A stretch of 64,000 bases of DNA. It comes from Candidatus Cloacimonadota bacterium (lineage in GTDB: Bacteria; Cloacimonadota; Cloacimonadia; G963667145). A model generated the notes under the pieces. It was not told the origin of the DNA. It was given only the letters and a program-made list of their open reading frames with translations, and did not search any database. This document shows positions 10,447-43,867 of the stretch, in pieces. The first letter of the stretch is position 1; each line of letters opens with the position of its first letter. The position numbers were made by a program, and so were the translations under genes. Location of the stretch: the NCBI GenBank assembly GCA_963667145.1, contig OY762943.1, positions 1,236,251 to 1,300,250 on the forward strand, written 5' to 3'.

Positions 10447-10808
10447 TTTTTTCTCCAATAAATACTCCATGTCAAATAAAATAAAAGTAACAAAAAAAGT
10501 CAAATAAAAAGGTGTAATCGTAAATATGTGGGTAATGTTTAGTCATCTTTATGGACAATGTTTCTACTATAAATAAAGTGACCAAAGAAATAATTTGAGA
10601 GTGCTCCAATCCTTCCTGCTGTAAATCCCCGTTTACACGGAGAAGATGCTTTGTTTATTAATTTTTCTAATTCTCATGTCTGTAAAAAATAGGTATCTAT
10701 TATTAACTGATTTCTTGAACAACAATTCCACAGAAAGCCATAATGAGAATTGCATATAATCACCATAATAATTTGACAGCTCCACCACCAACTCGCGAAA
10801 ATAACTCT

Positions 10809-18813: not shown

Positions 18814-19506
18814 ATGAAAACACAAACCATTTTGCGTGCCGGATTAGTTACCATTTCATCAATCTTTTGCCTGTTTTCTCCTTCTTCTTTACGGGCAAGA
18901 AATTTTCATTACTTAGAGCCGGCACGCTCTTTTCTGCTCAATCCCGCTCTGCAAGATTCCTGCTTCTCCACGGGAGCCAAATTCTACAACGGCGAAAGCG
19001 ACGTCATGAATTACAACGTTTCTCTCTCCACTAAGCACAAAAAATTTTCTTACTTCGCCGATGGCGACTATCTGTATTTCAAATATTACAAAATGCTCAA
19101 TTTCTCAGGAGGACTAAGCTATAAACACAACATCTATTCCGTAGGTGGCTACTTATCCTACCAACAAGATTCCGAAGAAAATATCGATGAAGATTGCTCA
19201 ATTTCCACAGGGATTAACTTTTTGGGGATGAGTCATTATCTTATTTGCACTTCTATCTCAGAGAAGCAATGGGCTGTCGAAACTCGCAAAGATAAATTTT
19301 TGGTGTTCAGGCTTGAGGAAGAGAACTTTCTTGTCGCCACAGAAAATCTATTAAATAAATTCAGTTCCTTGAAAATTTCACTCCGTAAAAACGAACTTGC
19401 TTCGGGAATAAAGTTCACTATCAAAAAATGGTTTATACAATTTTCTACAATTTGGCATAGACATACCCAAGCGGATTATTTGGTGAATGTGGGAAGGGAA
19501 TTTTAG
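18814..19506 (+). CDS. Hypothetical secreted protein (230 aa)
   Basis: An ORF with an N-terminal hydrophobic signal-like region. No recognisable family. Confidence 0.4.
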   Translation: MKTQTILRAGLVTISSIFCLFSPSSLRARNFHYLEPARSFLLNPALQDSCFSTGAKFYNGESDVMNYNVSLSTKHKKFSYFADGDYLYFKYYKMLNFSGGLSYKHNIYSVGGYLSYQQDSEENIDEDCSISTGINFLGMSHYLICTSISEKQWAVETRKDKFLVFRLEEENFLVATENLLNKFSSLKISLRKNELASGIKFTIKKWFIQFSTIWHRHTQADYLVNVGREF

Positions 19507-19563: not shown

Positions 19564-20361
19564 TTGCGAGTAAAAATTACTTTTAGTTCTAATAGAAATT
19601 TTTTTGTCCCTTTCAACTACAAATACGAGATTTCTGCCCTCGTCTACAAGCTAATTGCCACAGCTTCCCAAGATTATGCCACCTTTTTACATGAAAAAGG
19701 TTTTGAATTTGATTTCTTAAGAAAATTCAAACTTTTCACTTTCTCCGATCTAAATTTTATTCCATTTAAAATTGATAAGCTAAAAGGTGGATTTGGCGAA
19801 ATTGAAAAAGTTGAGTTAATTTTTTCCACATTGATTCCCAAAAGTTTTGAAAATTTTATTTTAGGGATTTTTAAAAATCAGAATATTTCACTTGGTTTTG
19901 GTGCAGGCAGAAAAATAGACTTCTTTGCAGAAAATGTGGAAACTTTACCAGAGATAACTTTTGAAAATGAACTTAAATTCAAGTGTCTTTCGCCGATAGT
20001 AGTAACTACTAAAAAAGAAATAAACGGCGATTTGAAATTGCATTTTGTGGAATATAATACTCCCGAAGAAAAGAAACAATTTTCCGAAAACATTCATAAA
20101 AATCTTCTCTATAAATATGCAGCTTTTCATGGTAAAGAATACGGAAATAAAGATTATAATTTTGAATTTCATTTTGATGAGGAATATATCAAAAAACGCA
20201 AAGGGAAAATTTATAAGCTCCTGCGTTACAAAAACACCAATATCAAAGGGATTTATGTTTCGGGTGTTGTAAAAGCTCCCAAAGAGTTGTTAGAGATTTT
20301 GTATTATGCAGGGGTTGGAGAGAAGAATAGCGGGGGATTTGGATGTGTGGAGGAAATTTGA
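19564..20361 (+). CDS. cas6: Cas6 (CRISPR repeat endoribonuclease), type I-B
   Basis: TTG start 8 nt after aaggag. The C-terminal glycine-rich loop GVGEKNSGGFGCV is typical of Cas6. It is the first gene of the cas operon. Confidence 0.75.
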   Translation: MRVKITFSSNRNFFVPFNYKYEISALVYKLIATASQDYATFLHEKGFEFDFLRKFKLFTFSDLNFIPFKIDKLKGGFGEIEKVELIFSTLIPKSFENFILGIFKNQNISLGFGAGRKIDFFAENVETLPEITFENELKFKCLSPIVVTTKKEINGDLKLHFVEYNTPEEKKQFSENIHKNLLYKYAAFHGKEYGNKDYNFEFHFDEEYIKKRKGKIYKLLRYKNTNIKGIYVSGVVKAPKELLEILYYAGVGEKNSGGFGCVEEI

Positions 20362-20370
20362 GAGGTAAGA

Positions 20371-23865
<3,495 letters not shown>

Positions 23866-23874
23866 GTATTATCA

Positions 23875-26322
23875 ATGTATATTGAATTTGATAGTTTGAA
23901 TATTGCTCAAAATATTTTTGCACATAGAAAAGGGGAAAAACCAAAGGAAACTTTGGAAAAACATTCTAATTTAACAAAAAAATATTTAGATTTGTTAATT
24001 CAGAAGAAAAATTTAACTGAAATCCTCGATACTTTGTTTAATTATATTCCTGTAAAAAATGCTTACCTATTAAGGGAGATGTTTTTTAACGCTGTATATC
24101 TTCATGATTTGGGAAAGAACAATTCAGGCTTTCAACGACATAAGATGGGAAATTTAGATTTTGAAGAGACAACAGCTTCTTCTAATCACTCTTATCTTTC
24201 AGCTAAAAAATTTATTAGAATCTTTGAAGAGAAAATTGAAAAAATTGACGATGAATTAGAGAATTATTTATTGCTTTTTGTTTTATATAATTTTGCTTAT
24301 CAAATATCAAAACATCATGGCAGATTAGAATCTTTTGAGAGTTTTATTGAAAAAACAAAAAATAAAGACTTAAAAAATTTTCAGCAAAACTTGCAATATC
24401 TTAAAATCTCTGAATTTGAGTTTTACATTCTAAGCAAATTACTTTTCTCATTATTAGTAAGTTCCGATTATTATGCAACAACAGAATATATGGCTGATTT
24501 GAAAACAGAAAATTTTGGCTTATTTAATATACCATTAAAGGGAAAACTAAATCAAAAATTTAATGATTTCAAAAATTCTTTACCTAAACCTGAAGGAATA
24601 AATATTCTTCGTTCAAAGATGCTAAAAGAAACGGAAGAGGTTTTGGCTGGAAATTTTGATAAAAATATTTTTTATTTGGAAGCTCCAACGGGGAGTGGAA
24701 AAACCATAACTTCTATTAATTTGGCATTAAAATTATTGGAAAAAGATAAAAATTTAAATAAACTTTTTTATATTTTTCCTTTTAATACTTTAGTTGAGCA
24801 AACAAAAAAAGTTTTCGAAAATATTTTTGAAGATTTGCTAAACATTGAAGTTATAAATTCTATCACTCCAATCAAAATACAAAATGATGAGGAATTGGAA
24901 GAAGAAGAAAGTAAATATGAAAAATCGTATTTAAATAGATTGTTTTTTCATAATCCAGTAATTTTAACTACGCATATTGCTTTATTTAAAATTTTATTCG
25001 GACTTTCCAAAGAAGACAATTATCCTCTTTGGCAACTTGCTAATTCTGTGATAATTCTTGATGAAATTCAATCTTACGATAATAAAATCTGGTGGCATAT
25101 GATTGAGTTTTTTCAAAAATATGCTAAAAACCTTAATCTTAAAATTATAATAATGTCGGCAACTTTGCCTAAACTTGATACTTTATTGGAAAATCCGGTT
25201 GGTTTTGTTGATTTGATAAAGAATAGGTCAAATTATTTTGAAAATAGTTATTTTAAAGAAAGGGTGAAACTTGATTTTTCATTATTGAAAAATGAAATTT
25301 TTAAAAAGGATACTGATGATGATCTGCGAAAAGTTAGGATTGAAAAATTATTTTCTGCTTTTGATGAAGAAAAAACTAAGTATCAAAAGTTTCTTTTTGA
25401 ATTTATAAAAAAGAATACGGCTCGAGAGATTTATAATCTTCTAAAAGAAAAATATGAAAGTGAATTTGATATTTATGAATTGACCGGTGACGACAATAAG
25501 GCTTATCGGGAATATGTAATTTCAGAAACGAAAAAGAACAAAAAAATAATTGTTGTTGCTACGCAAGTAATTGAGGCTGGTGTGGACATTGATATGGATA
25601 TTGGTTTTAAAAATATTTCAACTATTGATAGTGAAGAACAATTTCTCGGCAGAATAAATCGTAATTGCCAAAAGAAAAATTCAAAAGCTTATTTTTTTTA
25701 TTTGGATAGTGAACAAGATGTTTATAAGGAAGATAATCGCTTAGAGTTTAATTTGCGAAAAGAAAAATATAAAAATAATTTAATAAATAAAAATTTTCAA
25801 GACTTTTATTCTGAAGTTTTAGACAGAATTTTCAAGAAAGAAAGCGAAATAAAATCCGGCTTGGAAAGTGAATTCGATACTTTTAAAAAATATGTTGGAG
25901 AGCTTAATTATAAGATTATTTCTGATAAAATGACTTTAATTAAATCACAGAATTTTATCATATTTTTCCCCTTCCAAATAGATATTCAAAAATATGAAAT
26001 TGAGGAATTTAAAAATATTGATTCTTCACTATTTGAAAAAGATAAATTAGACGGTGAAAAAATTTGGAATAGATTTAAAAAATTAAATGAAATTAAAAAT
26101 TTTACTCAAAGGGAAATTGAGAAATCTAAAATAAATTCACTGATGCAGTTTTTTATATTCAATATAACAAAGTATGATAGTAAAGAACTTTTTACGGGAA
26201 CCTATGATGAAGAAATCGGTGGAATTTATTATATAAAAGATTATGAAGATTTTATTACAGAAGATTTGAAGTTTAAGCGAAAAGAATTTATTGAAAAATG
26301 CAAAGATAGAAACTTGGAATAG
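23875..26322 (+). CDS. cas3: Cas3 HD-nuclease/helicase fusion
   Basis: HD domain (AH...YLHDLGK...), DEAD/DEAH helicase Walker A APTGSGKT, DEID (IILDEIQSYD), helicase C region VVATQVIEAGVDIDMD. Confidence 0.9.
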   Translation: MYIEFDSLNIAQNIFAHRKGEKPKETLEKHSNLTKKYLDLLIQKKNLTEILDTLFNYIPVKNAYLLREMFFNAVYLHDLGKNNSGFQRHKMGNLDFEETTASSNHSYLSAKKFIRIFEEKIEKIDDELENYLLLFVLYNFAYQISKHHGRLESFESFIEKTKNKDLKNFQQNLQYLKISEFEFYILSKLLFSLLVSSDYYATTEYMADLKTENFGLFNIPLKGKLNQKFNDFKNSLPKPEGINILRSKMLKETEEVLAGNFDKNIFYLEAPTGSGKTITSINLALKLLEKDKNLNKLFYIFPFNTLVEQTKKVFENIFEDLLNIEVINSITPIKIQNDEELEEEESKYEKSYLNRLFFHNPVILTTHIALFKILFGLSKEDNYPLWQLANSVIILDEIQSYDNKIWWHMIEFFQKYAKNLNLKIIIMSATLPKLDTLLENPVGFVDLIKNRSNYFENSYFKERVKLDFSLLKNEIFKKDTDDDLRKVRIEKLFSAFDEEKTKYQKFLFEFIKKNTAREIYNLLKEKYESEFDIYELTGDDNKAYREYVISETKKNKKIIVVATQVIEAGVDIDMDIGFKNISTIDSEEQFLGRINRNCQKKNSKAYFFYLDSEQDVYKEDNRLEFNLRKEKYKNNLINKNFQDFYSEVLDRIFKKESEIKSGLESEFDTFKKYVGELNYKIISDKMTLIKSQNFIIFFPFQIDIQKYEIEEFKNIDSSLFEKDKLDGEKIWNRFKKLNEIKNFTQREIEKSKINSLMQFFIFNITKYDSKELFTGTYDEEIGGIYYIKDYEDFITEDLKFKRKEFIEKCKDRNLE

Positions 26323-26350
26323 ATAAATAAAAGCTAATTTAGGGGAACTT

Positions 26351-26848
26351 ATGGTCAATAACCCAAAAATTACAGCTACCCAAATCAATTACTATTTTGT
26401 GTGTCATCGCGAACTCTGGCTTTTTTCTCATCAGGTGAATATGGAGCAAAATTCAGAATTGGTAGCTTTGGGTAAGCTTTTGCACGAAAATTCTTATAAG
26501 CGGGAAGACAAGGAAGTGCAAATCGGTCCGATTAAAATCGATTTTATAGGTAAGGACAGAGTTATTCACGAGGTAAAGAAAACTCCCTCCATCGAAGAAG
26601 CACACACTTGGCAACTCAAGTATTATTTGTGGTATCTGAAACAATTGGGAGTGGAAAATTTGAAAGGCGAGATAGATTATCCCAAATTGAAAAAACGGAC
26701 GGAAATTACCTTGAGCACAGAAGATGAAGAGCAAATCGGGAAAATATTGCAAGAAATAGAGCAAATTGTAAATTCCCCCGAAATTCCGCAAACCATCAAC
26801 AAATCTCGATGCAAAAAATGTAGCTATTACGAACTTTGTTATATTTAA
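26351..26848 (+). CDS. cas4: Cas4 (RecB-like nuclease with Fe-S cysteines)
   Basis: 165 aa. The N-terminal Cys is in YYFVCHRELW. The C-terminal cluster CKKCSYYELC supplies three more Cys. It includes the RecB-nuclease core. Confidence 0.85.
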   Translation: MVNNPKITATQINYYFVCHRELWLFSHQVNMEQNSELVALGKLLHENSYKREDKEVQIGPIKIDFIGKDRVIHEVKKTPSIEEAHTWQLKYYLWYLKQLGVENLKGEIDYPKLKKRTEITLSTEDEEQIGKILQEIEQIVNSPEIPQTINKSRCKKCSYYELCYI

Positions 26849-26857
26849 GGAGATAAG

Positions 26858-27847
26858 ATGAAGAGAGATTATTTTTCTTTTTCCAATGGAAGTTTCCAAC
26901 GGAAAGATAATACGCTTCTTTATACTAATCTTGAGGGTAAGAAAAAGATAATCCCCATCGAAACCGTCAAAAATTTATACTCATTTGGGGAGACCGATCT
27001 TAATACCAAGCTTTTGAATTTTTTGGCTCAAAATGAAGTTTTTTTGCATATTTTCAATTACTACGGGTTTTATTCGGGAAGTTTTGTCCCCAGAGACAGC
27101 TTACTTTCCGGAGAAGTGATAGTCAAACAAGTCAAAAAATTTACTAAACCATCTTTGCAATTGATTCTTGCCAAAGAGTTAATTTCGGCTACCAGAGATA
27201 ATATGCTCAAAAATTTGTCTTATTATGCCAATAGAGGCAAAAACGATTTGGATGAAATCAAACAAAAAATGGAGAGTTTTGACCTTGAGGAAGCTGACGA
27301 TACTCAGCAATTGATGGGAATTGAGGGCAATATTCGAAAAACTTATTATCAAAGTTTCAATACAATCATCGATAGGGAAATTGATTTTGAAAAGCGAGTT
27401 AAACGTCCCCCTGACAATATGATAAACACTTTGGTCTCTTTTGGAAATATGATGCTTTACACAGCTGTACTTTCGGAAATTTACCGTACGCAACTAAATC
27501 CCACGATTTCTTTTTATCACAAACCTTCTTATCGCAGATACTCTCTGGCATTGGATATTTCGGAATTGTTCAAACCATTTTTGGTGGATAGAATTATCTT
27601 TAAGCTTCTAAACAAAAATATGATTAGCGAGAAAGATTTCAAAAAAGAACTTAATTTTTGCTATATGAAAGAAAAGGCGAGAAAAGTTTTCGTGAAGGAG
27701 TTTGACGAAAAATTGTCTACGACCATCAAGCACAAAAAACTTGGAAGGAACATTTCTTATAGGCATCTTATGCGGTTGGAATGTTATAAATTTGTAAAAG
27801 TTGTTTTGGAACATATTGATTATGAAGCATTTAGGACTTGGTGGTGA
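26858..27847 (+). CDS. cas1: Cas1 integrase
   Basis: 329 aa. It has the conserved Cas1 fold regions (…GIEGNIRKTYYQSF…KRPPDNMINTLVSFGNMMLY…) and sits before cas2. Confidence 0.9.
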   Translation: MKRDYFSFSNGSFQRKDNTLLYTNLEGKKKIIPIETVKNLYSFGETDLNTKLLNFLAQNEVFLHIFNYYGFYSGSFVPRDSLLSGEVIVKQVKKFTKPSLQLILAKELISATRDNMLKNLSYYANRGKNDLDEIKQKMESFDLEEADDTQQLMGIEGNIRKTYYQSFNTIIDREIDFEKRVKRPPDNMINTLVSFGNMMLYTAVLSEIYRTQLNPTISFYHKPSYRRYSLALDISELFKPFLVDRIIFKLLNKNMISEKDFKKELNFCYMKEKARKVFVKEFDEKLSTTIKHKKLGRNISYRHLMRLECYKFVKVVLEHIDYEAFRTWW

Positions 27848-27850
27848 TTT

Positions 27851-28114
27851 ATGTATGTGATAGCTGTTTATGATATTGGCGAAAAAAGAGTTGGCAAAAT
27901 TTTAAAGATTTTTAGAAAATATTTGACGCGAATTCAAAATTCCGTTTTCGAAGGAGAGATTACCAAATCGAAATTTGAAAAGTTGAAGATAGAAGTGTTA
28001 GAAGTGATTGACAAGGGTTATGATAATGTTTTGTACTACAAATTGACTTCCGATCATTATTTGCGTAAAGAACAGTTGGGAGTGCAATTAGACCAGATGA
28101 GCGTCTTCTTGTAA
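27851..28114 (+). CDS. cas2: Cas2
   Basis: 87 aa. MYVIAVYDIGEKRVGKILKIFRKYLTRIQNSVFEGEI is the canonical Cas2 N-terminus. Confidence 0.85.
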   Translation: MYVIAVYDIGEKRVGKILKIFRKYLTRIQNSVFEGEITKSKFEKLKIEVLEVIDKGYDNVLYYKLTSDHYLRKEQLGVQLDQMSVFL

Positions 28115-28310
28115 TTTGTCGATGCTCAAAAATTTGAGAAAAATTATTTGTTTCTTTATAAAATATTTGTAACAATTTGATTATTTCGTTGCAAATCATC
28201 ACGTTGTCGAACTTGGGGGAATTTTACATTATGAGGCATCGACGACAAAATCTTTCGTTATTTTGATATTGTAGCTTATTAAATAAGCATTTGTCTAGAA
28301 AAAGTAACGG
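28115..28310 (+). promoter_or_regulatory. CRISPR leader (AT-rich, between cas2 and the first repeat)
   Basis: 196 bp at about 25% GC, immediately 5' of repeat 1. The repeat orientation (ending ATTGAAAC on the + strand) puts array transcription on the + strand starting here. Confidence 0.55.
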
Positions 28311-31300
28311 ATTTAAATTAGACTACTGTAGAATTGAAACCAAGTTACAATGAGGACGAAATGGATACACTTTTGTATTTAAATTAGACTACTGTAGAAT
28401 TGAAACTTTTGAGACTCTCCCTCCCAAGATAGAAAGATTAGATTTAAATTAGACTACTGTAGAATTGAAACTTACAAATAACCGTAAAAAATAGATAAAA
28501 AACTTTATTTAAATTAGACTACTGTAGAATTGAAACGTAGCATTATTAACATATTTTGTAAATGTTGCCTGTATTTAAATTAGACTACTGTAGAATTGAA
28601 ACTCTGAATAATTATCGCTAAAAATTCCCTCTCGAAATTTAAATTAGACTACTGTAGAATTGAAACAAGTTCGCTGAGTTCCAAGACATACTGAACTTTT
28701 TATTTAAATTAGACTACTGTAGAATTGAAACATATTAAAGGCAGTTTAGCAGATTATTTGCTTCGTATTTAAATTAGACTACTGTAGAATTGAAACGTTA
28801 CATTAAAAGCTGTCCCCCAGTTAATTTTGAGGTATTTAAATTAGACTACTGTAGAATTGAAACTAAACAAATCTTTTTTGATTTTGGTCACCCAACCAAT
28901 TTAAATTAGACTACTGTAGAATTGAAACTGGAAACCGAGCTGTCTGCTTGTGGGACGCTTTCTCCATTTAAATTAGACTACTGTAGAATTGAAACTTATA
29001 TATATCATCGAATAGTAGGCAGGCATATTGTATTTAAATTAGACTACTGTAGAATTGAAACCTCTTTTTGCTTTTTGGCAGGAGTTATCTTGAACGATTT
29101 AAATTAGACTACTGTAGAATTGAAACAGAGGATGTAGTCCGAAATGGAGAAAGCAGAATAAATTTAAATTAGACTACTGTAGAATTGAAACTTTAAAAAT
29201 TCGCCTTTTACTCGGAATGTCTTATTTTTATTTAAATTAGACTACTGTAGAATTGAAACTTTAAAATCTTCCTATATGGAAATTAAACCTCCAGATTTAA
29301 ATTAGACTACTGTAGAATTGAAACTGGTTTTTCTGGCAGTAGTAATGTCAGCTTTGATTATTTAAATTAGACTACTGTAGAATTGAAACAGTATGGAGAT
29401 TTTGCTACACGGAATGAGACGGCATTTAAATTAGACTACTGTAGAATTGAAACCACCCTCAATCTACCAATCACTTCCGGCGACCACTTATTTAAATTAG
29501 ACTACTGTAGAATTGAAACATGTCATTAAGAGTGCTATTAAAAAGAATATTTGAATATTTAAATTAGACTACTGTAGAATTGAAACTTTGTCGGCTTTGT
29601 ATTCGCCTGTTGGTTTTCGGAGCATTTAAATTAGACTACTGTAGAATTGAAACAAAACTCGTCTCTGACTTCTCCAAGGCTCTTGCCTTGATTTAAATTA
29701 GACTACTGTAGAATTGAAACTCTGATAAGCAAAAACTATGCTTACGCACCCTCACATTTAAATTAGACTACTGTAGAATTGAAACATTGTTCTATCAAAA
29801 CAGATTTTAAAATTATTTTTGCATTTAAATTAGACTACTGTAGAATTGAAACTTGAGCGTGTAAGATTTACCACCGCTCAACACCACAATTTAAATTAGA
29901 CTACTGTAGAATTGAAACGCCAGAAGGTGGATATGCCGATGCCCTGAAGATGAATTTAAATTAGACTACTGTAGAATTGAAACAAGGCGAATATACGGAC
30001 GAGAGCTTTGAGGCGATGAAGATTTAAATTAGACTACTGTAGAATTGAAACACATCTTTGAGTCTTTTAAATGCTTTTAAGGCTGATAATTTAAATTAGA
30101 CTACTGTAGAATTGAAACAAATATTTCAACGAAAAGAAAAATAAAGATGTAACAATTTAAATTAGACTACTGTAGAATTGAAACAATAGATTATGCAATA
30201 AATATTACAAGAGGATATTCAAATTTAAATTAGACTACTGTAGAATTGAAACGATAGTGCTTGTTTAATTGTCAGCCCTTTTTTCCTTATTTAAATTAGA
30301 CTACTGTAGAATTGAAACTCTGATAAGCAAAAACTATGCTTACGCACCCTCACATTTAAATTAGACTACTGTAGAATTGAAACATTGTTCTATCAAAACA
30401 GATTTTAAAATTATTTTTGCATTTAAATTAGACTACTGTAGAATTGAAACTTGAGCGTGTAAGATTTACCACCGCTCAACACCACAATTTAAATTAGACT
30501 ACTGTAGAATTGAAACGCCAGAAGGTGGATATGCCGATGCCCTGAAGATGAATTTAAATTAGACTACTGTAGAATTGAAACAAGGCGAATATACGGACGA
30601 GAGCTTTGAGGCGATGAAGATTTAAATTAGACTACTGTAGAATTGAAACACATCTTTGAGTCTTTTAAATGCTTTTAAGGCTGATAATTTAAATTAGACT
30701 ACTGTAGAATTGAAACAAATATTTCAACGAAAAGAAAAATAAAGATGTAACAATTTAAATTAGACTACTGTAGAATTGAAACAATAGATTATGCAATAAA
30801 TATTACAAGAGGATATTCAAATTTAAATTAGACTACTGTAGAATTGAAACGATAGTGCTTGTTTAATTGTCAGCCCTTTTTTCCTTATTTAAATTAGACT
30901 ACTGTAGAATTGAAACTTATATATATCATCGAATAGTAGGCAGGCATATTGGATTTAAATTAGACTACTGTAGAATTGAAACCCTGTTCAAGCATATACT
31001 CGATAAAGTCTGCTAAATTTAAATTAGACTACTGTAGAATTGAAACTTTTGCCCTGCTTAAATTATTATAAGTCAATACAATATTTAAATTAGACTACTG
31101 TAGAATTGAAACCTCGATTAAGCCCACCTGTTCCAGTTCCCGGAGTCCTATTTAAATTAGACTACTGTAGAATTGAAACTTGATTTGTGTCTGAGGCTCA
31201 ATTTTAGGGATTAAATTTAAATTAGACTACTGTAGAATTGAAACCTATAAATTTTGGAATAAACAATTTTAAGATAAAAGATTTAAATTAGACTACTGTA

Positions 31301-31636
31301 GAATTGAAACTGGAGCTAAAAAAAGTTTTTGTCAGCTTAATTCCGTATTTAAATTAGACTACTGTAGAATTGAAACTTTATAAATGGTGTTGTAAAATCC
31401 AAATTTATAAAACAATTTAAATTAGACTACTGTAGAATTGAAACATTCAAATCTGACGATTTGTTATTCCCTAACTCTCGATTTAAATTAGACTACTGTA
31501 GAATTGAAACGTCGGTATTCGTATTATTTGCATATGAATAGTCCGTATTTAAATTAGACTACTGTAGAATTGAAACATAATCAATCCTACAAACTTCCTC
31601 AATCTCTCAAAATTTAAATTAGACTACTGTAGAATT
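28311..31636 (+). CRISPR. CRISPR array, leader-proximal half: 51 repeats, the last truncated by the IS
   Basis: 30-bp repeat ATTTAAATTAGACTACTGTAGAATTGAAAC with a period of about 66 bp and spacers of 34-39 bp. Positions were counted by eye and may be off by a few bp. Confidence 0.95.
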
Positions 31637-32712
31637 GTGGGCGGTATGCAGTAAAAGTATCCACCCTTGTTAATTTTTTCTATGTCTCTCGAATAAAAAT
31701 CTGCGATGATGGGATTTATGTTTATGACCTTATAATTAGGCTTTGAAAAATTTTCTCTCAAAATCTGTTTTGGCGATTTCCCACCTCGTCCTCGGTTGCC
31801 ACGAAAGTGATTAAAATACAGCGTGTAGCAGTGGGTTTTGCACAGAAAATCTTCGCAACTTCCAAAATCCTCAATTCTATAAAACTCATCTTCAATCAAG
31901 CGGTGACAACTCTCAACATCTGAATTAAAAGTCGGACTAGCTTTTGGAATAAGCAAATGCTTCGCACCATTTTTGGCTACCATTTTTTCAAAATATGTAA
32001 CGCCTTTCTTCTTATTAACGTGCGTGAATTCCGTGCCATTGTCCGTCTGAAAAGCGACTTTGGAAATATCGACTCCACATTTTGCCAAATTTTTGCACAA
32101 ATAATCGATGTAAATCCCTGTGTTAACACTCGTTTTTTCGTAGCAAAATCCAATGAACTGCATCCCCGATTTATAGTCGCGGGCAGTTATTTGATACTTC
32201 GGGAAATTTTTGTATTTAATCCCCTCAAACAGCTCAGGTAAGTCGGTCAGGTACTTAATATCAACCTGAAATTTCTCGTAAATTTTCGCTTTTTTTCGCA
32301 TCAAGCTCAAGTCTTTTCTGCGTTGGTATCTTCGCTTTTTTTTCTTAATCAAACCTTCGTCGCACAGCTTTTTGTGAACAGTGGAATGCGAGCAATTCAG
32401 CTGAAGATGGTCAATAATTCGTCGTGAACCCCACAGGTTTTTGGATTTATTTCGGCACGTTACAATCTCATCAACCACTTCAGGATTCATGCGATTCGGG
32501 AAAAATTGATTTTTTCGGGACTTGTTATTCAACCCCTCCTCTCCCTTTAAATTATAAGCTTTTACCCATTTTCGCACAGTTTTTCTGGTGGTGTTGAATT
32601 CACGTGCAGCCTCCGAAATAGAAGTTTCTTTGGCGTACTTTACCAACTTTTTTCGGTAATAAACCTTGTACTTTTTATCCATAAAATTCTTATTGCTTTC
32701 GTAATTATTCAT
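31624..32712 (-). CDS. DDE transposase (rve integrase core with N-terminal HTH; IS481-like)
   Basis: 362 aa. HTH (SISEAAREFNTTRKTVRKWVKAY). Integrase core with DNGTEF and ...IEDEF.... The ORF has no internal stop: the last two codons and the TAG stop are supplied by the flanking CRISPR repeat. Confidence 0.8.
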   Translation of the reverse strand: MNNYESNKNFMDKKYKVYYRKKLVKYAKETSISEAAREFNTTRKTVRKWVKAYNLKGEEGLNNKSRKNQFFPNRMNPEVVDEIVTCRNKSKNLWGSRRIIDHLQLNCSHSTVHKKLCDEGLIKKKKRRYQRRKDLSLMRKKAKIYEKFQVDIKYLTDLPELFEGIKYKNFPKYQITARDYKSGMQFIGFCYEKTSVNTGIYIDYLCKNLAKCGVDISKVAFQTDNGTEFTHVNKKKGVTYFEKMVAKNGAKHLLIPKASPTFNSDVESCHRLIEDEFYRIEDFGSCEDFLCKTHCYTLYFNHFRGNRGRGGKSPKQILRENFSKPNYKVININPIIADFYSRDIEKINKGGYFYCIPPTILQ

Positions 32713-32857
32713 AGTGGTCAGATTGAGCTTTCACGAGCTGATTTGACCATTTTTTTCACAATTTACGTGAAAGTTCTAAGCAATCTCCCCATTTTTTTAT
32801 AAACTTTCCTGTTACAAATCTTCAATTTAGGGTGGATACTTTTAGTGTGAACTTTCC
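31637..32857 (-). mobile_element. IS481-family-like insertion sequence (~1.22 kb) inserted inside a CRISPR repeat
   Basis: Imperfect terminal inverted repeats TGGGCGGTATGCAGTAAAAGTATCCACCC / GGGTGGATACTTTTAGTGTGAACTTTCCA share a perfect 16-bp core AAAAGTATCCACCC. A 15-bp direct duplication ACTACTGTAGAATTG of repeat sequence flanks both ends. A single DDE transposase ORF lies inside. Confidence 0.8.
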
Positions 32858-32858
32858 A

Positions 32859-35800
32859 ACTACTGTAGAATTGAAACTTGACTGCACTTTCGACAACTCT
32901 ATCCTCGTTCTCATATTTAAATTAGACTACTGTAGAATTGAAACTGACATCACATTTATTAGGTTTAATTTTGGTCTATATTTAAATTAGACTACTGTAG
33001 AATTGAAACTCGTGCAGGTACGCTCTGATGACGCTGTCAGCAACTATTTAAATTAGACTACTGTAGAATTGAAACAAAGATAAATTAGAGGGTTTATATT
33101 GTGAGCTGGAATTTAAATTAGACTACTGTAGAATTGAAACAGATATGGCGTGAGCCTTTCTGACGCACAATCTGAAATTTAAATTAGACTACTGTAGAAT
33201 TGAAACATGGAGATTAGGCTTGTGTCCGTAAACTCGAAGTATTTAAATTAGACTACTGTAGAATTGAAACTCGAACAAACCGCCTTTGTTGTTCACTCCA
33301 AGTAAATTTAAATTAGACTACTGTAGAATTGAAACTTGGTAAATTGTTGTAATTAAAAAATAGTGGCAAAAAATTTAAGTTAGACTACTGTAGAATTGAA
33401 ACAATTTTCTTTGCCTTATTCGTCAATATTTTCAAGGATATTTAAATTAGACTACTGTAGAATTGAAACACTTTTGTTGAATTATTCAAACCCTTGTCTT
33501 TATTATATTTAAATTAGACTACTGTAGAATTGAAACTTACAAGCTCCTTGAAATACTTCTGAATTGCATAACAATTTAAATTAGACTACTGTAGAATTGA
33601 AACTTTGTAGGTGCAAGTAGTTCGGCTCTTTCTTTGTCCGATTTAAATTAGACTACTGTAGAATTGAAACATGTTATTACCGTTACAAAGATGATGGAGG
33701 GAAAATACAATTTAAATTAGACTACTGTAGAATTGAAACTCGGCTGGCATATTGGTTGTATAGTCGATTGACAAAATTTAAATTAGACTACTGTAGAATT
33801 GAAACAAGGATTTGTAAAGATGGGTTGCTCTTATCCATTGGATTTAAATTAGACTACTGTAGAATTGAAACGGAGTAAAGTAAGTTTTGTCCCGACACGA
33901 CCGTGATAATTTAAATTAGACTACTGTAGAATTGAAACTTGTGTGTATTCGTTCTTTTTTTGTCTCGTCAGCATTTAAATTAGACTACTGTAGAATTGAA
34001 ACAAAATTTAAGAGGAGTATCATCGGTTAAACTGTTACCATTTAAATTAGACTACTGTAGAATTGAAACTAACCCGAATATTGAGAGCGTTTGCCTCGGC
34101 TGGGAATTTAAATTAGACTACTGTAGAATTGAAACACGAAATTCTCAATTTGGTTTTGAATTGACTCCAAATTTAAATTAGACTACTGTAGAATTGAAAC
34201 CTGCTTTTTGCTGATTGTTGTTTAGCTCCATCCAATTTAAATTAGACTACTGTAGAATTGAAACATCACAATGAAGAATGTAAACGCTTTTGTCTTATTG
34301 CAATTTAAATTAGACTACTGTAGAATTGAAACTTAATAGGCTCAAAAACAACTGCATTTCCTGAAGAATTTAAATTAGACTACTGTAGAATTGAAACTTT
34401 GCAGTGTTAACGATGTACATATCAAAAGAAGCCAATTTAAATTAGACTACTGTAGAATTGAAACACAAAGAGGGAGTGGCACTTACATTTTTGTGGATTT
34501 TATTTAAATTAGACTACTGTAGAATTGAAACAGGAGCTTTATGATAATGCGATGGAAACAGCAAAGCATTTAAATTAGACTACTGTAGAATTGAAACAAA
34601 GAGTTTAGTCAACCTCTACCTGCTATAAAAGTATTTAAATTAGACTACTGTAGAATTGAAACCTCAACAATGAATGCGACAAACCCATATATGCCAAAAT
34701 TTAAATTAGACTACTGTAGAATTGAAACTTTCGGCGGTATGAGCTTTATTCAAATGATTTACCCAATTTAAATTAGACTACTGTAGAATTGAAACCCCTA
34801 AAATAGCGGACTTGGTAGAAGAAAAAACAGAAATTTAAATTAGACTACTGTAGAATTGAAACATGCTTGAAAAAATTTATTTGATGTTTGGTGGGAAAAT
34901 TTAAATTAGACTACTGTAGAATTGAAACATTTTAAGGCTTGAAAATGTGGGGATTTTTGTCAAATTTAAATTAGACTACTGTAGAATTGAAACGATATTT
35001 AGTAGGATTGATTCTTTATATAAGTTTGAATTTAAATTAGACTACTGTAGAATTGAAACTTTGCAGTGTTAACGATGTACATATCAAAAGAAGCCAATTT
35101 AAATTAGACTACTGTAGAATTGAAACTAAAATCTGTCGTATGCCCCCTCTTCAACTCCCATTATTTAAATTAGACTACTGTAGAATTGAAACACAAAGAG
35201 GGAGTGGCACTTACATTTTTGTGGATTTTATTTAAATTAGACTACTGTAGAATTGAAACCTTGGTATTTACAAAGTGGAGGTCAAAGGAAGTTGCAGAAT
35301 TTAAATTAGACTACTGTAGAATTGAAACGGGTACTTGTCATTCTTGTAGCTCACAAAATACCGAGATTTAAATTAGACTACTGTAGAATTGAAACGTGCT
35401 TTACCTCCAAGTACATACTCCGCATGTTCCAATTTAAATTAGACTACTGTAGAATTGAAACAATTTAACCTCAGAGACTTTCACATTCAGCAAATAGGAT
35501 TTAAATTAGACTACTGTAGAATTGAAACCCGAAATAAACAATGCTGGTGTTGTTATTCAAAGTGAATTTAAATTAGACTACTGTAGAATTGAAACAGGAG
35601 CTTTATGATAATGCGATGGAAACAGCAAAGCATTTAAATTAGACTACTGTAGAATTGAAACATAGCATCCTTAATCTTTGCCAAATTACCATCAAGGATT
35701 TAAATTAGACTACTGTAGAATTGAAACAATTTAACCTCAGAGACTTTCACATTCAGCAAATAGGATTTAAATTAGACTACTGTAGAATTGAAGCCCGAAA

Positions 35801-36125
35801 TAAACAATGCTGGTGTTGTTATTCAAAGTGAATTTAAATTAGACTACTGTAGAATTGAAACAGGAGCTTTATGATAATGCGATGGAAACAGCAAAGCATT
35901 TAAATTAGACTACTGTAGAATTGAAACAGAAAATTTTGGAGTTTTTTTCATTTTTGGAAAGAGATTTAAATTAGACTACTGTAGAATTGAAACAAGCTAT
36001 TCTTGGGGGAAATAAAATGAGTAAATGAATATTTAAATTAGACTACTGTAGAATTGAAACATTTTAAGGCTTGAAAATGTGGGGATTTTTGTCAAATTTA
36101 AATTAGACTACTGTAGAATTGAAAC
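32859..36125 (+). CRISPR. CRISPR array, distal half (about 50 repeats), resuming with the 3' part of the split repeat
   Basis: It has the same repeat as the proximal half. It includes the variant repeats ATTTAAGTTAG... (about 33372) and ...GAATTGAAGC (about 35790). Confidence 0.95.
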
Positions 36126-36181
36126 TATGAGAGATTTATAAAAAAATACGACCGTCCAGAATTTGATAACGTCTCAAAGTT

Positions 36182-36671
36182 GGTGTAAATTTAAAAAGTA
36201 AAAAATGGTCACTTTTGCTCTTATGTTACAAAAAGTTAACACGAGGAGGCAAAAATGACCAACAACCATGATAAAAAACTTGAAGAATTTACAAATTTTG
36301 TCAAGGATGAAACGAGTAATAATTTAACAAAAATTTTGAAAACAGCTGTACATCAACTGTTTCAAGCAGAATTAGAATCATATTTGAATGCTAAAAAATA
36401 TGAGAGAAATCAGGAGCGAACAACTTATAGAAGTGGATTTAGAACTAGAAAACTTGCCACTAGTTTAGACGATGAGAAAAAATCATTTAGGATTTTTTCA
36501 TAGTTGTGAAAGTTGTAATCTTCTAATTGGAGCAATTTTAGTTCAGCAAAATGAGGATTGGCTTGAAGGACTAACCTATATGAGTATAATAAAAAAAGAG
36601 CCAACTTACGGAAAAAACTCAAGTTAGCAGAAAATTTTTAGAAATAATTAAAACATGAGAGAATTTACACC
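36182..36671 (+). mobile_element. Putative internally deleted IS256-family remnant bounded by 10-bp inverted repeats GGTGTAAATT / AATTTACACC
   Basis: The terminal inverted 10-mers are at 36182-36191 and 36662-36671. It encloses an 82-codon ORF resembling the N-terminus of IS256-family transposases. Confidence 0.35.
36255..36503 (+). pseudogene. Truncated IS256-family (mutator-type) transposase, N-terminal fragment only
   Basis: LTKILKTAVHQLFQAELESYLNAKKYERNQERTTYRSGFRTRKL parallels the IS256 Tnp N-terminus (...NQLMENQRTEYIQAKEYERTENRQSQRNGYYER...). It stops after 82 aa and the catalytic DDE region is absent. Confidence 0.6.
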
Positions 36672-36696
36672 ACAAATGAGACTTGACTCCGATTTC

Positions 36697-36726
36697 ATTT
36701 AAATTAGACTACTGTAGAATTGAAAC
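36697..36726 (+). repeat. Orphan CRISPR repeat 570 bp beyond the array end
   Basis: An exact 30-bp copy of the array repeat, separated from the last array repeat by the IS256-like remnant. Confidence 0.9.
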
Positions 36727-37063
36727 TATGGTTATACAAATAGAGATAGATTATGCAAAGGATTTAGTTAACTTGAAAAGTTTTTTTTGGCTGTGAGACG
36801 CCCTCTACTGTAAGGCAACAAAAAAGGTCGCAATCCTTTAGGACTACGACCCCAATTCCGGAGAAGAATTGAACCCTCTATAGTCAGTCAAAAAAAAGAG
36901 GGCTTTCTAATCAGTCTATCATCTTAGAGGGGAGAAAAGAAAATTCCCCTCAAACTATTTTGTTCATGGTTAAAAAGGTTTATAACTATAGATTGAATAA
37001 GCTAAAAACTATTTAACAAATTGTTGATTAGTGGAAAATAATTGCAAGAAAAAGTTTGATTTT

Positions 37064-40000
37064 TTAGTTAGAGAAAGCGGGTTTGTTTGCAAGTAACCAA
37101 GCATTTGCATTTGTGTCAAACCCAGGAGGTGTAGGGAGGAACTGAGTCCATGTATTCCAGTTAATAAGATTTTGGTTGAAAATAGAAGCCCCGTTGAACA
37201 TATATTCCATATTGTTTACTTTACTCAAATTCCAGTCACTAATATCTTGATCGAAACCGCGAGCACCAGTAAACATCCAGCTCATATTTTCTACATTAGC
37301 AGTTTTTTCTTTCCAGTTGCCAATATTACCGTTGAATGCAGTGTTTCCGTAAAAGAGGCTACTCATGTCTTTTACATTGATTACATTCCATCCGCCGATG
37401 TCTTGATTGAAAGGAGTTTCTCTGAACATGGCTGCCATGGTGGTCACTTTGCCTACATCCCAGCTACTTATATCTTGGTTGAAGGAACTTGCTTGATAGA
37501 ACATATAACTCATGTCATTTACATTGCTAGTTTTTGTTCCCCAGTTACCTATGCTGTCGTTAAAAGCGGTTGCTCCGAAGAACATACCACACATAGTGGT
37601 ATCGTTGCTTACATCCCAGTTACTAATTTTACCATTAAAAGAGGATGCAAATTTAAACATACCGTCCATCGCTTTTACTTTGCTCACGTTCCAATTGTTA
37701 AGGTTTTGATTGAATGCTTTACAACATTTTATGGTATCATCACCGCCGAACATATAACCCATGTCTTCTACGTTGCTAACATCCCAGCCACCAATTTCTT
37801 GGTTGAATGTGGTGTTTTCAAAGAACATATATCTCATATTTTTTACACTGCTCACTGTCCAGCCAGTAATATCTGCGTTGAAGGATTGAGCTCTGCAGAA
37901 CATACTGGTCATATCTGTTACCTTGCTCACGTCCCAGCCACTAATGTCTCCATTAAAGGCTTTGGCATCTGTGAACATATTACTCATATTTGTTACGCTA
38001 TCCACTTTCCAGTTGCTGAGGTCTTGATTGAATAGAGTATCGCCATAGAACATAAAGCTCATGTCTTTTACTCTGCTTACATCCCAGTTGCTGATATTTT
38101 GGTCGAAGTTACCATTATCCTTAAACAATCTGCTCATATCCGTAATCTCGGAGGTGTTGACTTTTTCTACATTTTCGCCGTTTGCTATCTTTGTTCTGAG
38201 ATCTTCTATGGTTATAGCAGGTATTGTCATCCTTATAGTGAAGTTGTTTCCAGTGCTGTCTCCGTTGGTGGTGTTCACAGCTATTGAACTAAGTGAAGTT
38301 GCTGTTGTTGCATCATAGTCAGTTGGCACGGTGAGTGCTACCGTATATGTTCCCGCCAAAAGTCCGCTGAAGGAGTATATGCCACGGTCGCCAGTAGTTG
38401 TGGTTTTATTGGAACTCCCGCTCAGAGTTATAGTTGCCCCCTTATAGGTAGCTCCAGTAACTGTGCTGACTTTGCCTGAGATGGAATAAGTTGGTGTCAG
38501 ATTGAAGTTGTTGTTTGTGCTGTCGGCGTTGCTGACGGTGATAGATTTGGTGGTATCGTCAGCGATGTAACTATTAGGGATAGTTAGGGTTACGTTGTAT
38601 GAGCCGTTTAGCACATTGAAAGCATAATCGCCGTTGGCATCTGTGGTGACAGTGTCGTTGAAATCAACAATCGGAGAAGTATTAGAAGTTCCGCTCAATC
38701 TTAAGGTGTCGCTTCCGTGTCCTGTCACTTTTCCAGAGACGGTATGATATTTCCATATGGCGAAATTTTTCCATGATATGTTGGAAGAAGTTAAACTGAC
38801 AGATATAGTTGTTGTGGGGGCATAATATCCACTTGGAGTGGTGAGCCTTACTTCGTATGAACCAGTAGTTGTTATTCCGCTGAATTTGTATGACCCGTCG
38901 CTTGCTGTGGTTGTGGTGGCAACGGAATCTTTTGAAACTCCTGGAACTACAAAATACAACTTCAACGTAGCATTTTCATATTTTTCTCCAGTAGCTCCGT
39001 TAGACACTTCTCCTGAGATAAAGTAAGTTTGTGTTAGCGTGAAGTCGTTGCCAGTGCTGTCAGCTTCGTTTATGTCTATGTCTAATGTTGTGTCGTTGGC
39101 AATCCAATCTTCAGGAATATCTATGGTTACATGGTATTTTCCACTTACCAATCCGTCGAAGGAGTAGTTTCCACTGACCCCTGTGAGAGTGGCAGAAGAG
39201 TCTCCGCTCAAGGTCAAAGTGACACCTCCATAGTTAAGGATAGATCCCTTGATGGAATAGGTCTTTTGTATAGTGAAGTTTTGCCCCGTGACGTTGTCAT
39301 TGCTAATCGTGATGGAGAGCGTTGTGTCTTTCGTGAAGTAACCAGTCGGGTTAGTGAGTTTGACTGTGTAATCTCCTGTTACTAATCCGCTGAAGGAGTA
39401 TGAGCCGTCGCCTATCGAGGTGGTAGAGGCGATGGAGTCTGCACTGGAGTTATACAAAGTCAGATATGCACCATCTGTGTAGTCGGAGGTGTTACTTCCG
39501 CTCAGGATGTTGACCTTGCCCAAGATGGAATAAGTTGGAATTAGCGTGAAGTCGTTGCCAGTGCTATCGGCATTATCTATGGGGATAGATTTGGTGGTAT
39601 CGACAGCGATGTAGTTCTCGGGGATAGTCAGAGTTAGGTTATAGGTTCCGTTTATTGCTTTGAAAGAGTAGTTCCCATTTTCATCCGTAACTGTTGTATC
39701 AGCGAAGTCTGTGAGTATAGTAGTAGTTCCGCTCAATCTTACGGTGTCGTTTCCATGTCCCGTAACTTTGCCAGAGACGGTGTATTTTTTCCATAAGGTA
39801 AAGTTGATTGTTTTGTCATTAGAATAGATTATGGTTGTGGGAGCTGAGTCGGTAACAAAATAGTCGCTTGGAGTAGAGAGTGTTATTGTGTATGTGTTGC
39901 CAGTTGATGACCCTAATACTCCACTGAATTTGTATTCACCGTTGATGTCTGTGGTGGCAGTGGCGATTTGATTTCCGCCAAAGCTCAAGGTTAAGGTAGC

Positions 40001-43000
40001 GTTTGCAATTTTTTCATCGTTATTCGCTGGAGCAGTAACAGTTCCCGAGATATTGTATGTCTGAGTCAGATTGAAGTTGTTGTTTGTGCTGTCGGCGTTG
40101 TTGACGGTGATAGATTTTGTGGTATCGTCAGCGATGTAGTTCTCGGGGATAGTCAGAGTTAGGTCATATGTTCCGTTTATTGCTTTGAAGGAGTAGTTGC
40201 CACTGCCATCTGTAACTGTTGTATCAGCAAAGAATGTGCCTGCATTAGTATTTCCGCTCAATCTTAAGGTGTCGTTGCTGTGTCCTGTGACCTTACCAGA
40301 GACGGTGTGATATTCCCAAATGGTGAAGTCTTGATTCGGTATATCACCACTCAGTGAGGAGACGTTTATGGTAGTGTCGGCGGAATAGTAATTGCTTGGC
40401 GTCGAGAGAGTTACTGTGTAGTTTCCTGCCACTAATCCGCTGAAAAAGTATGCACCATTCGTCGTTGGAATTGTTTTGTTCGCCGTCAAAGAGCCACCGC
40501 TTATCGTCACGTTGGCACTTCCCGTGAAGTTGCTACCGTTGAGCTTCACATTCCCCGAGATGGAATAAATCGGAGTCAGATAGAAGTCTTTTGTTACATT
40601 GCCTCCGCTTATCGTTATTGTCGCCGTGGTGTCGTCAGCGATGTAGTTCTCGGGGATAGTCAGAGTTAGGTCATATGTTCCGTTTATTGCTTTGAAGGAG
40701 TAGTTGCCACTGCCATCTGTTACTGTTGTATCAGCAAAGAATGTGCCTGCATTAGTATTTCCGCTCAATCTTATGGTGTCGCTTCCGTGTCCTGAGACCT
40801 TACCAGAGACGGTGTGGTATTCCCAAATGGTGAAGTCTTGATTCGGTATATCACCACTCAGTGAGGAGACGTTTATGGTAGTGTCGGCGGAATAGTAATT
40901 GCTTGGCGTCGAGAGAGTTACTGTGTAGTTTCCTGCCACTAATCCGCTGAAAAAGTATGCACCATTCGTCGTTGGAATTGTTTTGTTCGTCGTCAAAGAG
41001 CCACCACTTATCGTCACATCGGCACTTCCAGTGAAGTTGCTACCGTCGAGCTTCACATTCCCTGAGATGGTGTAAGTCGGGGTTAGATTGAAGTTCTTGG
41101 CGACATCGCTTCCGCTTATAGTTATTGTCTCGATGGTATCGTCGGCAATGTAGTTCTCGGGGATAGTCAGAGTTAGGTCATATGTTCCGTTTATTGCTTT
41201 GAAGGAGTAGTTGCCACTGCCATCTGTTGCTGTTGTATCAGCAAAGAATGTGCCTGCATTAGTATTTCCGCTCAATCTTAAGGTGTCGTTGCTGTGTCCT
41301 GTGACCTTACCAGAGACGGTGTGATATTCCCAAATGGTGAAGTCTTGATTTGGTATATTGCCACTCAGCAAGGAGACGTTTATGGTAGTATTGGCGGAAT
41401 AGTAACCGTTTGGTGTTGAGAGAGTTACTATGTAATTGCCTGCTTCCAATCCGCTGAAGGAGTATGAGCCGTCGCTTGTCGAGGTGATAGAGGCGATGGA
41501 GTCTGCACTGGAGTTATACAAAGTCAGAGTTGCACCATTGTATGTTCCGCTCGGCGAGATGTTGACTTTACCCGAGATGGAATAAACTGGAGTTAGCTTA
41601 AAGTTTTTGGGAATAGGGCCCGTCACAGTGTATGTTTCTGTTGTGTCATCGGCAATGTAATTATCAGGGATTGTTAGAGTTATGGTATATGTGCTGTCTT
41701 TTATTAGCCCTGCGAATGTGTATGTTCCGCCGTTCCCATTTGGAGTTGCTTGATGCACTTGGTTGTTTGCGTAGTCGGTTAGAGTCACGGTAACAGTTTC
41801 ACTGCTGTATCCAGTGATTGTTCCACCTATGGAATAAGTCGGAGCCAGCGTGAAGTCTTGATCTGGAGTGTTTGCACTCAGTGAGGAGATGTTTATGGTA
41901 GTGTTGGCACAATAGTAACCACTTGGTGTTGAGAGAGTTACGGTGTAATTTCCTGTCGTTAATCCGCTGAAGGAGTATGCACCATTCGTTGTTGTAATTG
42001 TTTTGTTCACCGTTAGAGAGCCACCGCTTATCGTCACATCTGCACTTCCCGTGAAGTTGCTTCCGTTGAGTTTAATATTCCCTGAGATGGTGTAAGTCGG
42101 AGTCAGATTGAAGTCTTTGGTTATATTGCCTCCGCTTATCGTTATTGTCTCGGTAGTATCGTCAGCAATGTATGTACTGGGGATAGTTAGCGTTAGAGTA
42201 TAGTTTCCGTCTATTGCATTGAAGGAATAGTTGCCACTGCCATCTGTAACTGTTGTGTCAGCGAAGACTGTGTTTGCATTAGTATTTCCGCTCAATCTTA
42301 AGGTGTCGTTGCTGTGCCCTGTGACCTTGCCAGAGACGGTGTGGTATTCCCAAATGGTGAAATTTTGCCCCGTGATGTTGGCATTGCTGATGGTAATGGA
42401 GAGAGTTGTGTCTTTTGAGAAGTATCCGCTCGGGTTAGTGAGCTTCACTGTGTAGTTCCCTGCCACTAATCCGATGAAGGAGTATGAGCCGTCGCTTGTC
42501 GAGGTGGTAGAGGCGATGGAGTTTGCACTGGAGTTATACAAAGTCAAAGTTGCACCGTTATTATATGATGCCCCGCTCGGCGAGATGTTGACAGCACCCG
42601 AGACAGTGTATGTTTTTTCCGTGATAGTGAAGTCGTTCCCCGTGCTGTCGGCATTGCTTAGTGTTACGGATTTTGTTGTAGTTGTGGCTGTGTAGTTGTT
42701 AGGAACTGTGAGTTTCACCGTGTAAGTGCCTGCCTCAATTCCTGCGAACGAATATGAACCATTGGCATCGGTAGTATCGCTCGACAAAGCTGTGGAGGAG
42801 GAATCGAAAAGAGTTAAAGTAGCATTTTGGTATTTGCTTCCTGTTGATGTTGTTACGTTTCCAGAAATTGTGTATGTTACTACAGTAATGGTAATGTCGT
42901 TGCCAGTAGTGTTGTTATTCTCCATCTTAACCGTGATGGTCTCAGTTTTGTCTTCTGGAAGTAAAACGGTTATGGTATAGTCTCCATTTTGGGTCACTGT

Positions 43001-43729: not shown

Positions 43730-43867
43730 CTTAAAACATGCCCCCGCTAAATTCACAACCTTTCGTAAAACAATTTCAAATTCAATTTACACAATCCAAT
43801 GTTACTATTGGTGTAAAAAAATCAACAAAAATTATAATTTTTTGTAAGATTGTTTGGAATTTTTTGT

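Follow-up and report, generated by a model that had tools for sequence, protein, structure and literature searches.

Duplication of spacer blocks within a long type I-B CRISPR array of a Candidatus Cloacimonadota bacterium

The stretch of DNA analysed here, 64,000 nt from a Candidatus Cloacimonadota bacterium (contig OY762943.1 of assembly GCA_963667145.1, positions 1,236,251 to 1,300,250; hereafter the window), contains one long CRISPR array, with a complete type I-B cas operon directly upstream of it. Whole series of spacers recur within this array in the same order and orientation, and 17 of its 98 normal spacers (17%) are redundant copies. The copies comprise a nine-unit block repeated in perfect tandem, a three-spacer block present twice with a single difference, and two distal segments that have four spacers in common. 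We consider it very probable that the array was rearranged several times through misalignment of its own identical 30-nt repeats. Both the phenomenon and this mechanism have been described before; the array is an ordinary, unusually dense and multi-layered example of them, and no new mechanism is called for.

The array and its repeated spacers

The array spans positions 28311-36726 of the window on the + strand and consists of short, almost identical direct repeats, regularly spaced, with spacers of similar length between them. A regular-expression parse delimited 101 copies of the 30-nt repeat ATTTAAATTAGACTACTGTAGAATTGAAAC. Ninety-seven of these match the consensus, and in each of two more a single base is substituted; the remaining pair comprises repeat 51, which is split by an insertion sequence (IS) element, and a copy with a further 1-nt deviation in the 30-nt parse. 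The 98 normal spacers are 34-39 nt long and 81 of them are unique; a 99th spacer comes after the IS-split repeat 51. The rest of the window and the opposite strand are free of the repeat, and the exact 30-nt sequence has no match in the GTDB representative genomes, the JGI metagenomes or IMG/VR. As RNA the repeat is unstructured (no significant fold, z = -0.1), and an Rfam scan of the leader and first repeats returned no family. A scan for promoters and terminators was not informative, since TTGAAA- and TAGAAT-like hexamers lie within the repeat. The leader can be aligned with that of L006, the homologous locus of a sister Cloacimonadota genome, with a mean column identity of 87% over a 233-column alignment that includes the first repeat. 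An array of reverse orientation was considered and rejected: the conserved leader next to cas2, the 3' end of the repeat (ATTGAAAC) and the 5' TCA flank inferred for the protospacers (see below) all fit the + strand. The parts of the array are as follows.

28115-28310, + strand: leader, 196 bp, AT-rich, from cas2 to the first repeat
28311-31637, + strand: leader-proximal half, repeats 1-50 and the 5' part of repeat 51 (regular-expression parse)
32859-36126, + strand: distal half, the 3' part of repeat 51 to repeat 100 (same parse)
36697-36726, + strand: orphan terminal repeat (repeat 101, same parse)

From leader to trailer, the order reads: spacers 1-21, the block 22-30, the block 22-30 again, a copy of spacer 11, spacers 41-50, the IS element and spacers 51-73, after which come the two distal segments given below, where a prime marks a recurring spacer. 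Clustering of all 98 spacers grouped the copies into the following sets: 11~40 (near-identical); 22-30 = 31-39; 74 = 84; 75 = 86; 76 = 92 = 96; 82 = 99; 90 = 94; and 91 = 95. It added no pair to those already listed in an earlier reading of the letters (the original prediction), whose central observation, block duplications inside the array, is confirmed as a whole. No spacer of the array is the reverse complement of another, and the members of every exact pair are equal in length. Identical 35-39-mers within a region of 8 kb are far beyond chance. The recurring spacers and blocks are located as follows.

28996-29031, + strand: spacer 11, 36 nt, last base T, edit distance 1 to spacer 40
29691-30288, + strand: nine-unit tandem block, copy 1 (repeats 22-30 and spacers 22-30), by string identity over 598 bp
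30289-30886, + strand: nine-unit tandem block, copy 2 (spacers 31-39, equal to 22-30), 100% identical to 29691-30288
30917-30952, + strand: spacer 40, directly after the tandem block, 36 nt, last base G, near-copy of spacer 11
34368-35029, + strand: distal segment I, spacers in the order 74 75 76 77 78 79 80 81 82 83
35030-36126, + strand: distal segment II, spacers in the order 74' 85 75' 87 88 89 90 91 76' 93 90' 91' 76'' 97 98 82'
35432-35662, + strand: block 90-91-76, copy 1 (Tandem Repeats Finder, period 266, 99% match)
35698-35928, + strand: block 90-91-76, copy 2, with a variant repeat ending GAAGC at 35765-35794

The tandem duplication, predicted to measure roughly 600 bp, is exactly 598 bp long and comprises nine units; the strings quoted for the start and the end of the block occur at 29721/30319 and 30253/30851. 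The unit begins and ends at repeat boundaries, so that whole repeat-spacer units were copied, and the run of tandem identity extends to 629 nt, as the next repeat has the same sequence. Further pairs had been placed at 34386/35052, 34462/35190, 35461/35731, 35528/35798 and 34930/36061, and a triple at 34531/35594/35864. The pairs lie at 34399/35061, 34465/35193, 35462/35728, 35529/35795 and 34929/36061, respectively, and the triple at 34532/35596/35862; each quoted string was thus recovered in the expected copy number, 0-13 nt from its predicted place. A single correction concerns the pair predicted at 28997/30917 and found at 28996/30917 (spacers 11 and 40). The 35 nt that had been quoted are indeed identical, but the 36th and last base, T in one copy and G in the other, had been missed.

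The two copies of block 90-91-76 differ by one mismatch, which falls in a repeat (A at 35527, G at 35793), and between them lies spacer 93, which is not shared. On a larger scale, distal segments I and II, which hold the last 26 spacers, have spacers 74, 75, 76 and 82 in common. The order of these four is kept while the intervening spacers differ; calculated from spacer order, such collinearity has a chance of 1/24 if spacers had been re-acquired in random order. Multi-spacer series thus recur in the same order and orientation at three places: 22-30, 90-91-76 and, collinearly, 74, 75, 76 and 82.

Redundancy in other arrays

The density of copies had been called uncommon, and this holds against both a sample of related loci and a published survey. 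Arrays were parsed in 80 type I-B loci fetched with Cas1, and the 43 other arrays with at least 20 spacers were counted after the rows had been de-duplicated by hand, each array having been listed several times. Thirty-three of the 43 are free of exact duplicates (median 0%; pooled, 36 of 3011 spacers or 1.2%). Eight of the remaining arrays hold single-unit copies only, adjacent or dispersed, as against the nine-unit block of the window. Multi-unit blocks occur in only two, L038 and L006, and the 17% of the window is the second highest redundancy after the 24% of L038. In L038 (CAXXHB010000003.1, 11352-16283 on a 4.27-Mb contig of a Spirochaetota metagenome-assembled genome, or MAG) the array holds a tandem block of 15 units and, after it, a three-unit tandem. 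In L006 (OY762940.1, chromosome 1 of the sister Cloacimonadota MAG, 1,587,896 bp), where 5.7% of spacers are redundant, spacers 93-97 and 100-101 were recopied and 98-99 were lost. Both resemble the window in being long type I-B arrays with multi-unit block duplications on chromosome-scale contigs, but neither has a spacer in common with it. The sister genome is the closest relative, with 92% identity in Cas1 and about 78-82% in the cas DNA; its repeat, however, differs from that of the window at both ends (C...T versus A...C), and its cas8b gene is interrupted by an IS3 element. This IS3-type element splits cas8b at 2287-5303 of L006, and a second IS3-type gene set of the same sizes and domains is found at 19569-20800, between the last two repeats of the 125-repeat array.

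In the SpacerPlacer survey of CRISPRCasdb (Fehrenbach et al. 2024), about 3% of 24,090 spacers were duplicate candidates, of which 86% were reconstructed as simple duplications and about 1% as reacquisitions; the duplications were attributed to replication misalignment at repeats, and a faster loss of duplicated spacers was suggested (PMC11472070). In the work of Kupczok et al. (2015), inversions of order were most often caused by replicated spacers (PMC4524480), and both studies name replication misalignment at repeats as the source of spacer deletions as well as duplications (PMC11472070, PMC4524480). The window resembles these published cases in that exact copies of repeat-spacer units stand out of line with polarized insertion at the leader end, in the accompanying block deletions and in the cause proposed, misalignment of identical repeats. 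It differs in its level of redundancy, 17% versus about 3% in CRISPRCasdb, and in block size, one of its blocks being nine units long.

Origin of the copies

Since spacers enter singly, at the leader, acquisition cannot reproduce an order of nine or three spacers; where several spacers recur as a block in the same order, copying inside the array is the only possible source. The earlier preference for repeat-mediated copying over fresh acquisition is therefore supported by the nine-unit block, by block 90-91-76 and by the collinear spacers 74, 75, 76 and 82. The block-plus-erosion pattern of L006 and L038 counts in the same direction. The copying may have proceeded by replication slippage or by unequal exchange, between sister chromatids or between alleles; sequence alone does not separate slippage from unequal crossing-over. 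Functionally, the copies would do no more than raise the dosage of the corresponding CRISPR RNAs.

At least three copying events of different ages appear to be visible. The nine-unit tandem duplication would be the most recent, because its two copies are still 100% identical. An older event would have duplicated block 90-91-76, probably as a tandem copy of four units from which one unit was then lost. In the oldest, a block of 10-16 units that began with spacer 74 and ended with spacer 82 would have been duplicated in tandem, or brought together from diverged alleles, and the two copies since eroded differently by block deletions. New spacers normally go in at the leader end alone, so that insertion cannot turn one distal segment into the other; the two are best seen as differently deleted descendants of one longer block. 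The interleaved, collinear segments may also have come about when two diverged alleles of the array, from different strains, were joined. The pair 11/40 would represent either a fourth copying event or a re-acquisition.

Re-acquisition deserves consideration beyond this pair. Repeated spacers could have been taken up anew from the same virus at favoured protospacers flanked by a protospacer-adjacent motif (PAM), for example in primed adaptation, and this lineage does re-sample protospacers: pairs in L006 clearly stem from separate uptake of variant versions of one protospacer, namely 29/34 (5 differences), 18/84 (4 differences) and 37/44 (a 1-nt difference in length). The window itself offers spacers 11 and 40, with their different last bases, and the single copies 74/84, 75/86 and 82/99, which lie outside contiguous blocks; for such dispersed single copies independent re-acquisition may have taken place, above all for 11/40. 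It does not explain nine consecutive spacers or the triplet 90-91-76 in the same order, however, and the shared single copies are collinear, for which the chance is the 1/24 given above. Moreover, the exact pairs all have identical ends and lengths, unlike the re-acquired pairs of L006, and reacquisitions make up about 1% of duplicate candidates in the CRISPRCasdb reconstructions against 86% for duplications (PMC11472070). As the general source of the repeated spacers, re-acquisition is therefore improbable.

Searches for the protospacers were all negative. The whole array gave only weak, chance-level matches to the INPHARED phages (E at least 0.2); protospacers were absent from IMG/VR for four spacer cores and from the JGI metagenomes for one, and no spacer matches the rest of the 64-kb window at up to 6 mismatches, i.e. 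there is no self-targeting within it. Spacer 26/35 of the window (29984-30021 and 30582-30619) and spacer 36 of L006 (13769-13804) overlap on the same foreign sequence from opposite strands, with a 3-nt shift and one mismatch. The overlap lends indirect support to a derivation of the spacers from mobile elements. Each of the two spacers implies a 5' TCA beside the protospacer, and from these two cases 5' TCA is a likely PAM.

A metagenome assembler might instead have expanded the array, or strung together array variants of co-existing strains. The genome was assembled from a metagenome as one contig of 1.54 Mb (1,539,614 bp), CRISPR arrays vary between the strains of a population, and chromosome-scale MAGs of similar provenance are the source of each of the three arrays that show multi-unit blocks; the 598-bp copies, being perfectly identical, carry no internal mark of separate loci. 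Set against this, an array of more than 8 kb with 101 repeats was assembled whole, at a locus where k-mer assemblies get no further than the first repeat: by exact look-up of Cas2 and Cas8b, several Logan contigs (SRR344475xx) carry identical cas genes, and all of them end there. As arrays of more than 8 kb with more than 100 repeats were assembled whole where the Logan assemblies stop, we infer that the window and the sister genome are both long-read metagenome assemblies with reads that span the 598-bp unit. By its naming convention the contig name of the sister record (ctg38472c) fits a long-read assembler, as does the chromosome-level status of the record. The copies of block 90-91-76 differ by a single-nucleotide polymorphism (SNP) and the distal segments by their intervening spacers, so these are distinct stretches of DNA, and an assembly path that visits a block twice requires reads that hold the novel junction. 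Lastly, other chromosome-scale MAGs whose records have the same style of title, with universally unique identifiers (UUIDs) as isolate names, show only 0-2 duplicates in 75-108 spacers (L042, L058 and L092). An assembly artefact is thus unlikely on these indirect grounds, and we would give it very little weight.

Several points weigh against copying within the array as the explanation throughout. The perfect 598-bp duplication contains no internal proof that assembly expansion is not its cause. The Logan contigs provide no independent check of spacer order, since all stop at the first repeat. Duplication followed by deletion in the distal part needs about 8 events by hand count (one large duplication, about 5 deletions, one small duplication and one deletion), and four single re-acquisitions are numerically fewer. 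Finally, neither the three public collections searched for the repeat nor the sister array provided a related strain with the same spacers by which the events could be placed on a tree; with no exact match to the repeat in those collections, there was no sister array with common spacers to compare.

Cas operon, insertion elements and wider meaning

The cas operon lies directly upstream of the array at 19564-28114 on the + strand, in the order cas6-cas8b-cas7-cas5-cas3-cas4-cas1-cas2. The adaptation genes cas1 and cas2 adjoin the array, 196 bp upstream of the first repeat.

19564-20361, + strand: cas6 (NCBIfam Cas6)
20371-22122, + strand: cas8b (PADLOC Cas8b, the CAS-I-B effector large subunit, E = 6.2e-115, full-length match)
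22119-23063, + strand: cas7 (Pfam Cas7)
23050-23865, + strand: cas5, or cas5b (NCBIfam Cas5b, 141.7 bits, cutoff 97)
23875-26322, + strand: cas3, HD and helicase (NCBIfam Cas3' and Cas3'', above curated cutoffs)
26351-26848, + strand: cas4 (NCBIfam Cas4)
26858-27847, + strand: cas1, or cas1b (NCBIfam Cas1b, 431.8 bits, cutoff 304.1)
27851-28114, + strand: cas2 (NCBIfam Cas2)

Cas8b, the signature large subunit, has no match in NCBIfam or Pfam; together with Cas3, Cas5, Cas6, Cas7, Cas4 and a Cas1 of the I-B type it identifies the system as type I-B. The locus resembles other type I-B loci in its gene order, followed by leader and array, in its 30-nt unstructured repeat ending in ATTGAAAC and in its spacers of 34-39 nt. 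It differs from them in nothing essential, the particulars being a repeat without an exact database match or Rfam family and an array split by an IS.

Two elements interrupt the array.

31638-32858, - strand: IS481-like element, 1221 bp, in repeat 51, with a transposase ORF (open reading frame) at 31624-32712
36130-36696, + strand: remnant of a Mutator/IS256-type element, 567 bp, between repeat 100 and the orphan repeat (Transposase_mut match)

The transposase of the first matches the IS481 family in NCBIfam (8.6e-43; 146.9 bits, below the curated cutoff of 224 bits), and at least 8 paralogous transposase genes are present on the same 1.54-Mb contig. The element has 19-nt inverted repeats (31649-31667 and 32829-32847) and is flanked by a 15-bp target-site duplication, ACTACTGTAGAATTG, at 31623-31637 and 32859-32873. 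Judging from its position, it probably separates spacers 51-99 from the leader promoter. The remnant encodes an N-terminal transposase fragment in an 82-aa ORF (36255-36503; Pfam Transposase_mut, 1.1e-8) and has inverted repeats at 36171-36191 and 36662-36682. On both sides of it stands an identical 34-nt sequence in direct orientation, made up of the CRISPR repeat and TATG (window 36096-36730); an ordinary target-site duplication would be shorter.

The cas genes and array (window 20001-36000) have a G+C content of 26-32%, against 39-46% in the flanking genes. At the homologous locus of the sister genome the upstream neighbours differ (yidC and a gene of the enoyl-CoA hydratase family). The low G+C and the different neighbours suggest that the locus is mobile, or an island that was horizontally acquired or relocated. 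A 230-aa ORF directly upstream of cas6 (18814-19506, + strand) has no match in NCBIfam, Pfam or PADLOC. Two very large ORFs flank the region (5431-10503 and 37064-43756, both on the - strand; 1690 and 2230 aa). They contain tandem repeats, of period 339 in three copies at 8015-9060, period 81 at 9361-9539 and period 75 at 37822-37996, and are probably repetitive surface proteins.

Within the sample of type I-B arrays, contigs of at least 1 Mb hold 29 duplicates among 589 spacers (4.9%) and shorter contigs 7 among 2422 (0.29%), a split that is driven by two arrays, includes several arrays cut by the 10-kb flank and is only suggestive. The split fits the idea that block duplications are under-reported in short-read assemblies. 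Arrays may evolve by block duplication much more often than the databases indicate, as short-read assemblies are proposed to collapse or break such copies; we put this forward only tentatively and regard it as rather doubtful. The array hints that long-read assemblies will show more such events than the 3% or so reported so far. It is chiefly of use as a caution and a worked example, in which three ages of one process stand side by side: one copy still perfect, one changed by a single SNP and one heavily eroded. Duplicated spacers break the equation of array order with acquisition history, the assumption that lies behind strain typing, array-orientation tools and ancestral reconstruction.

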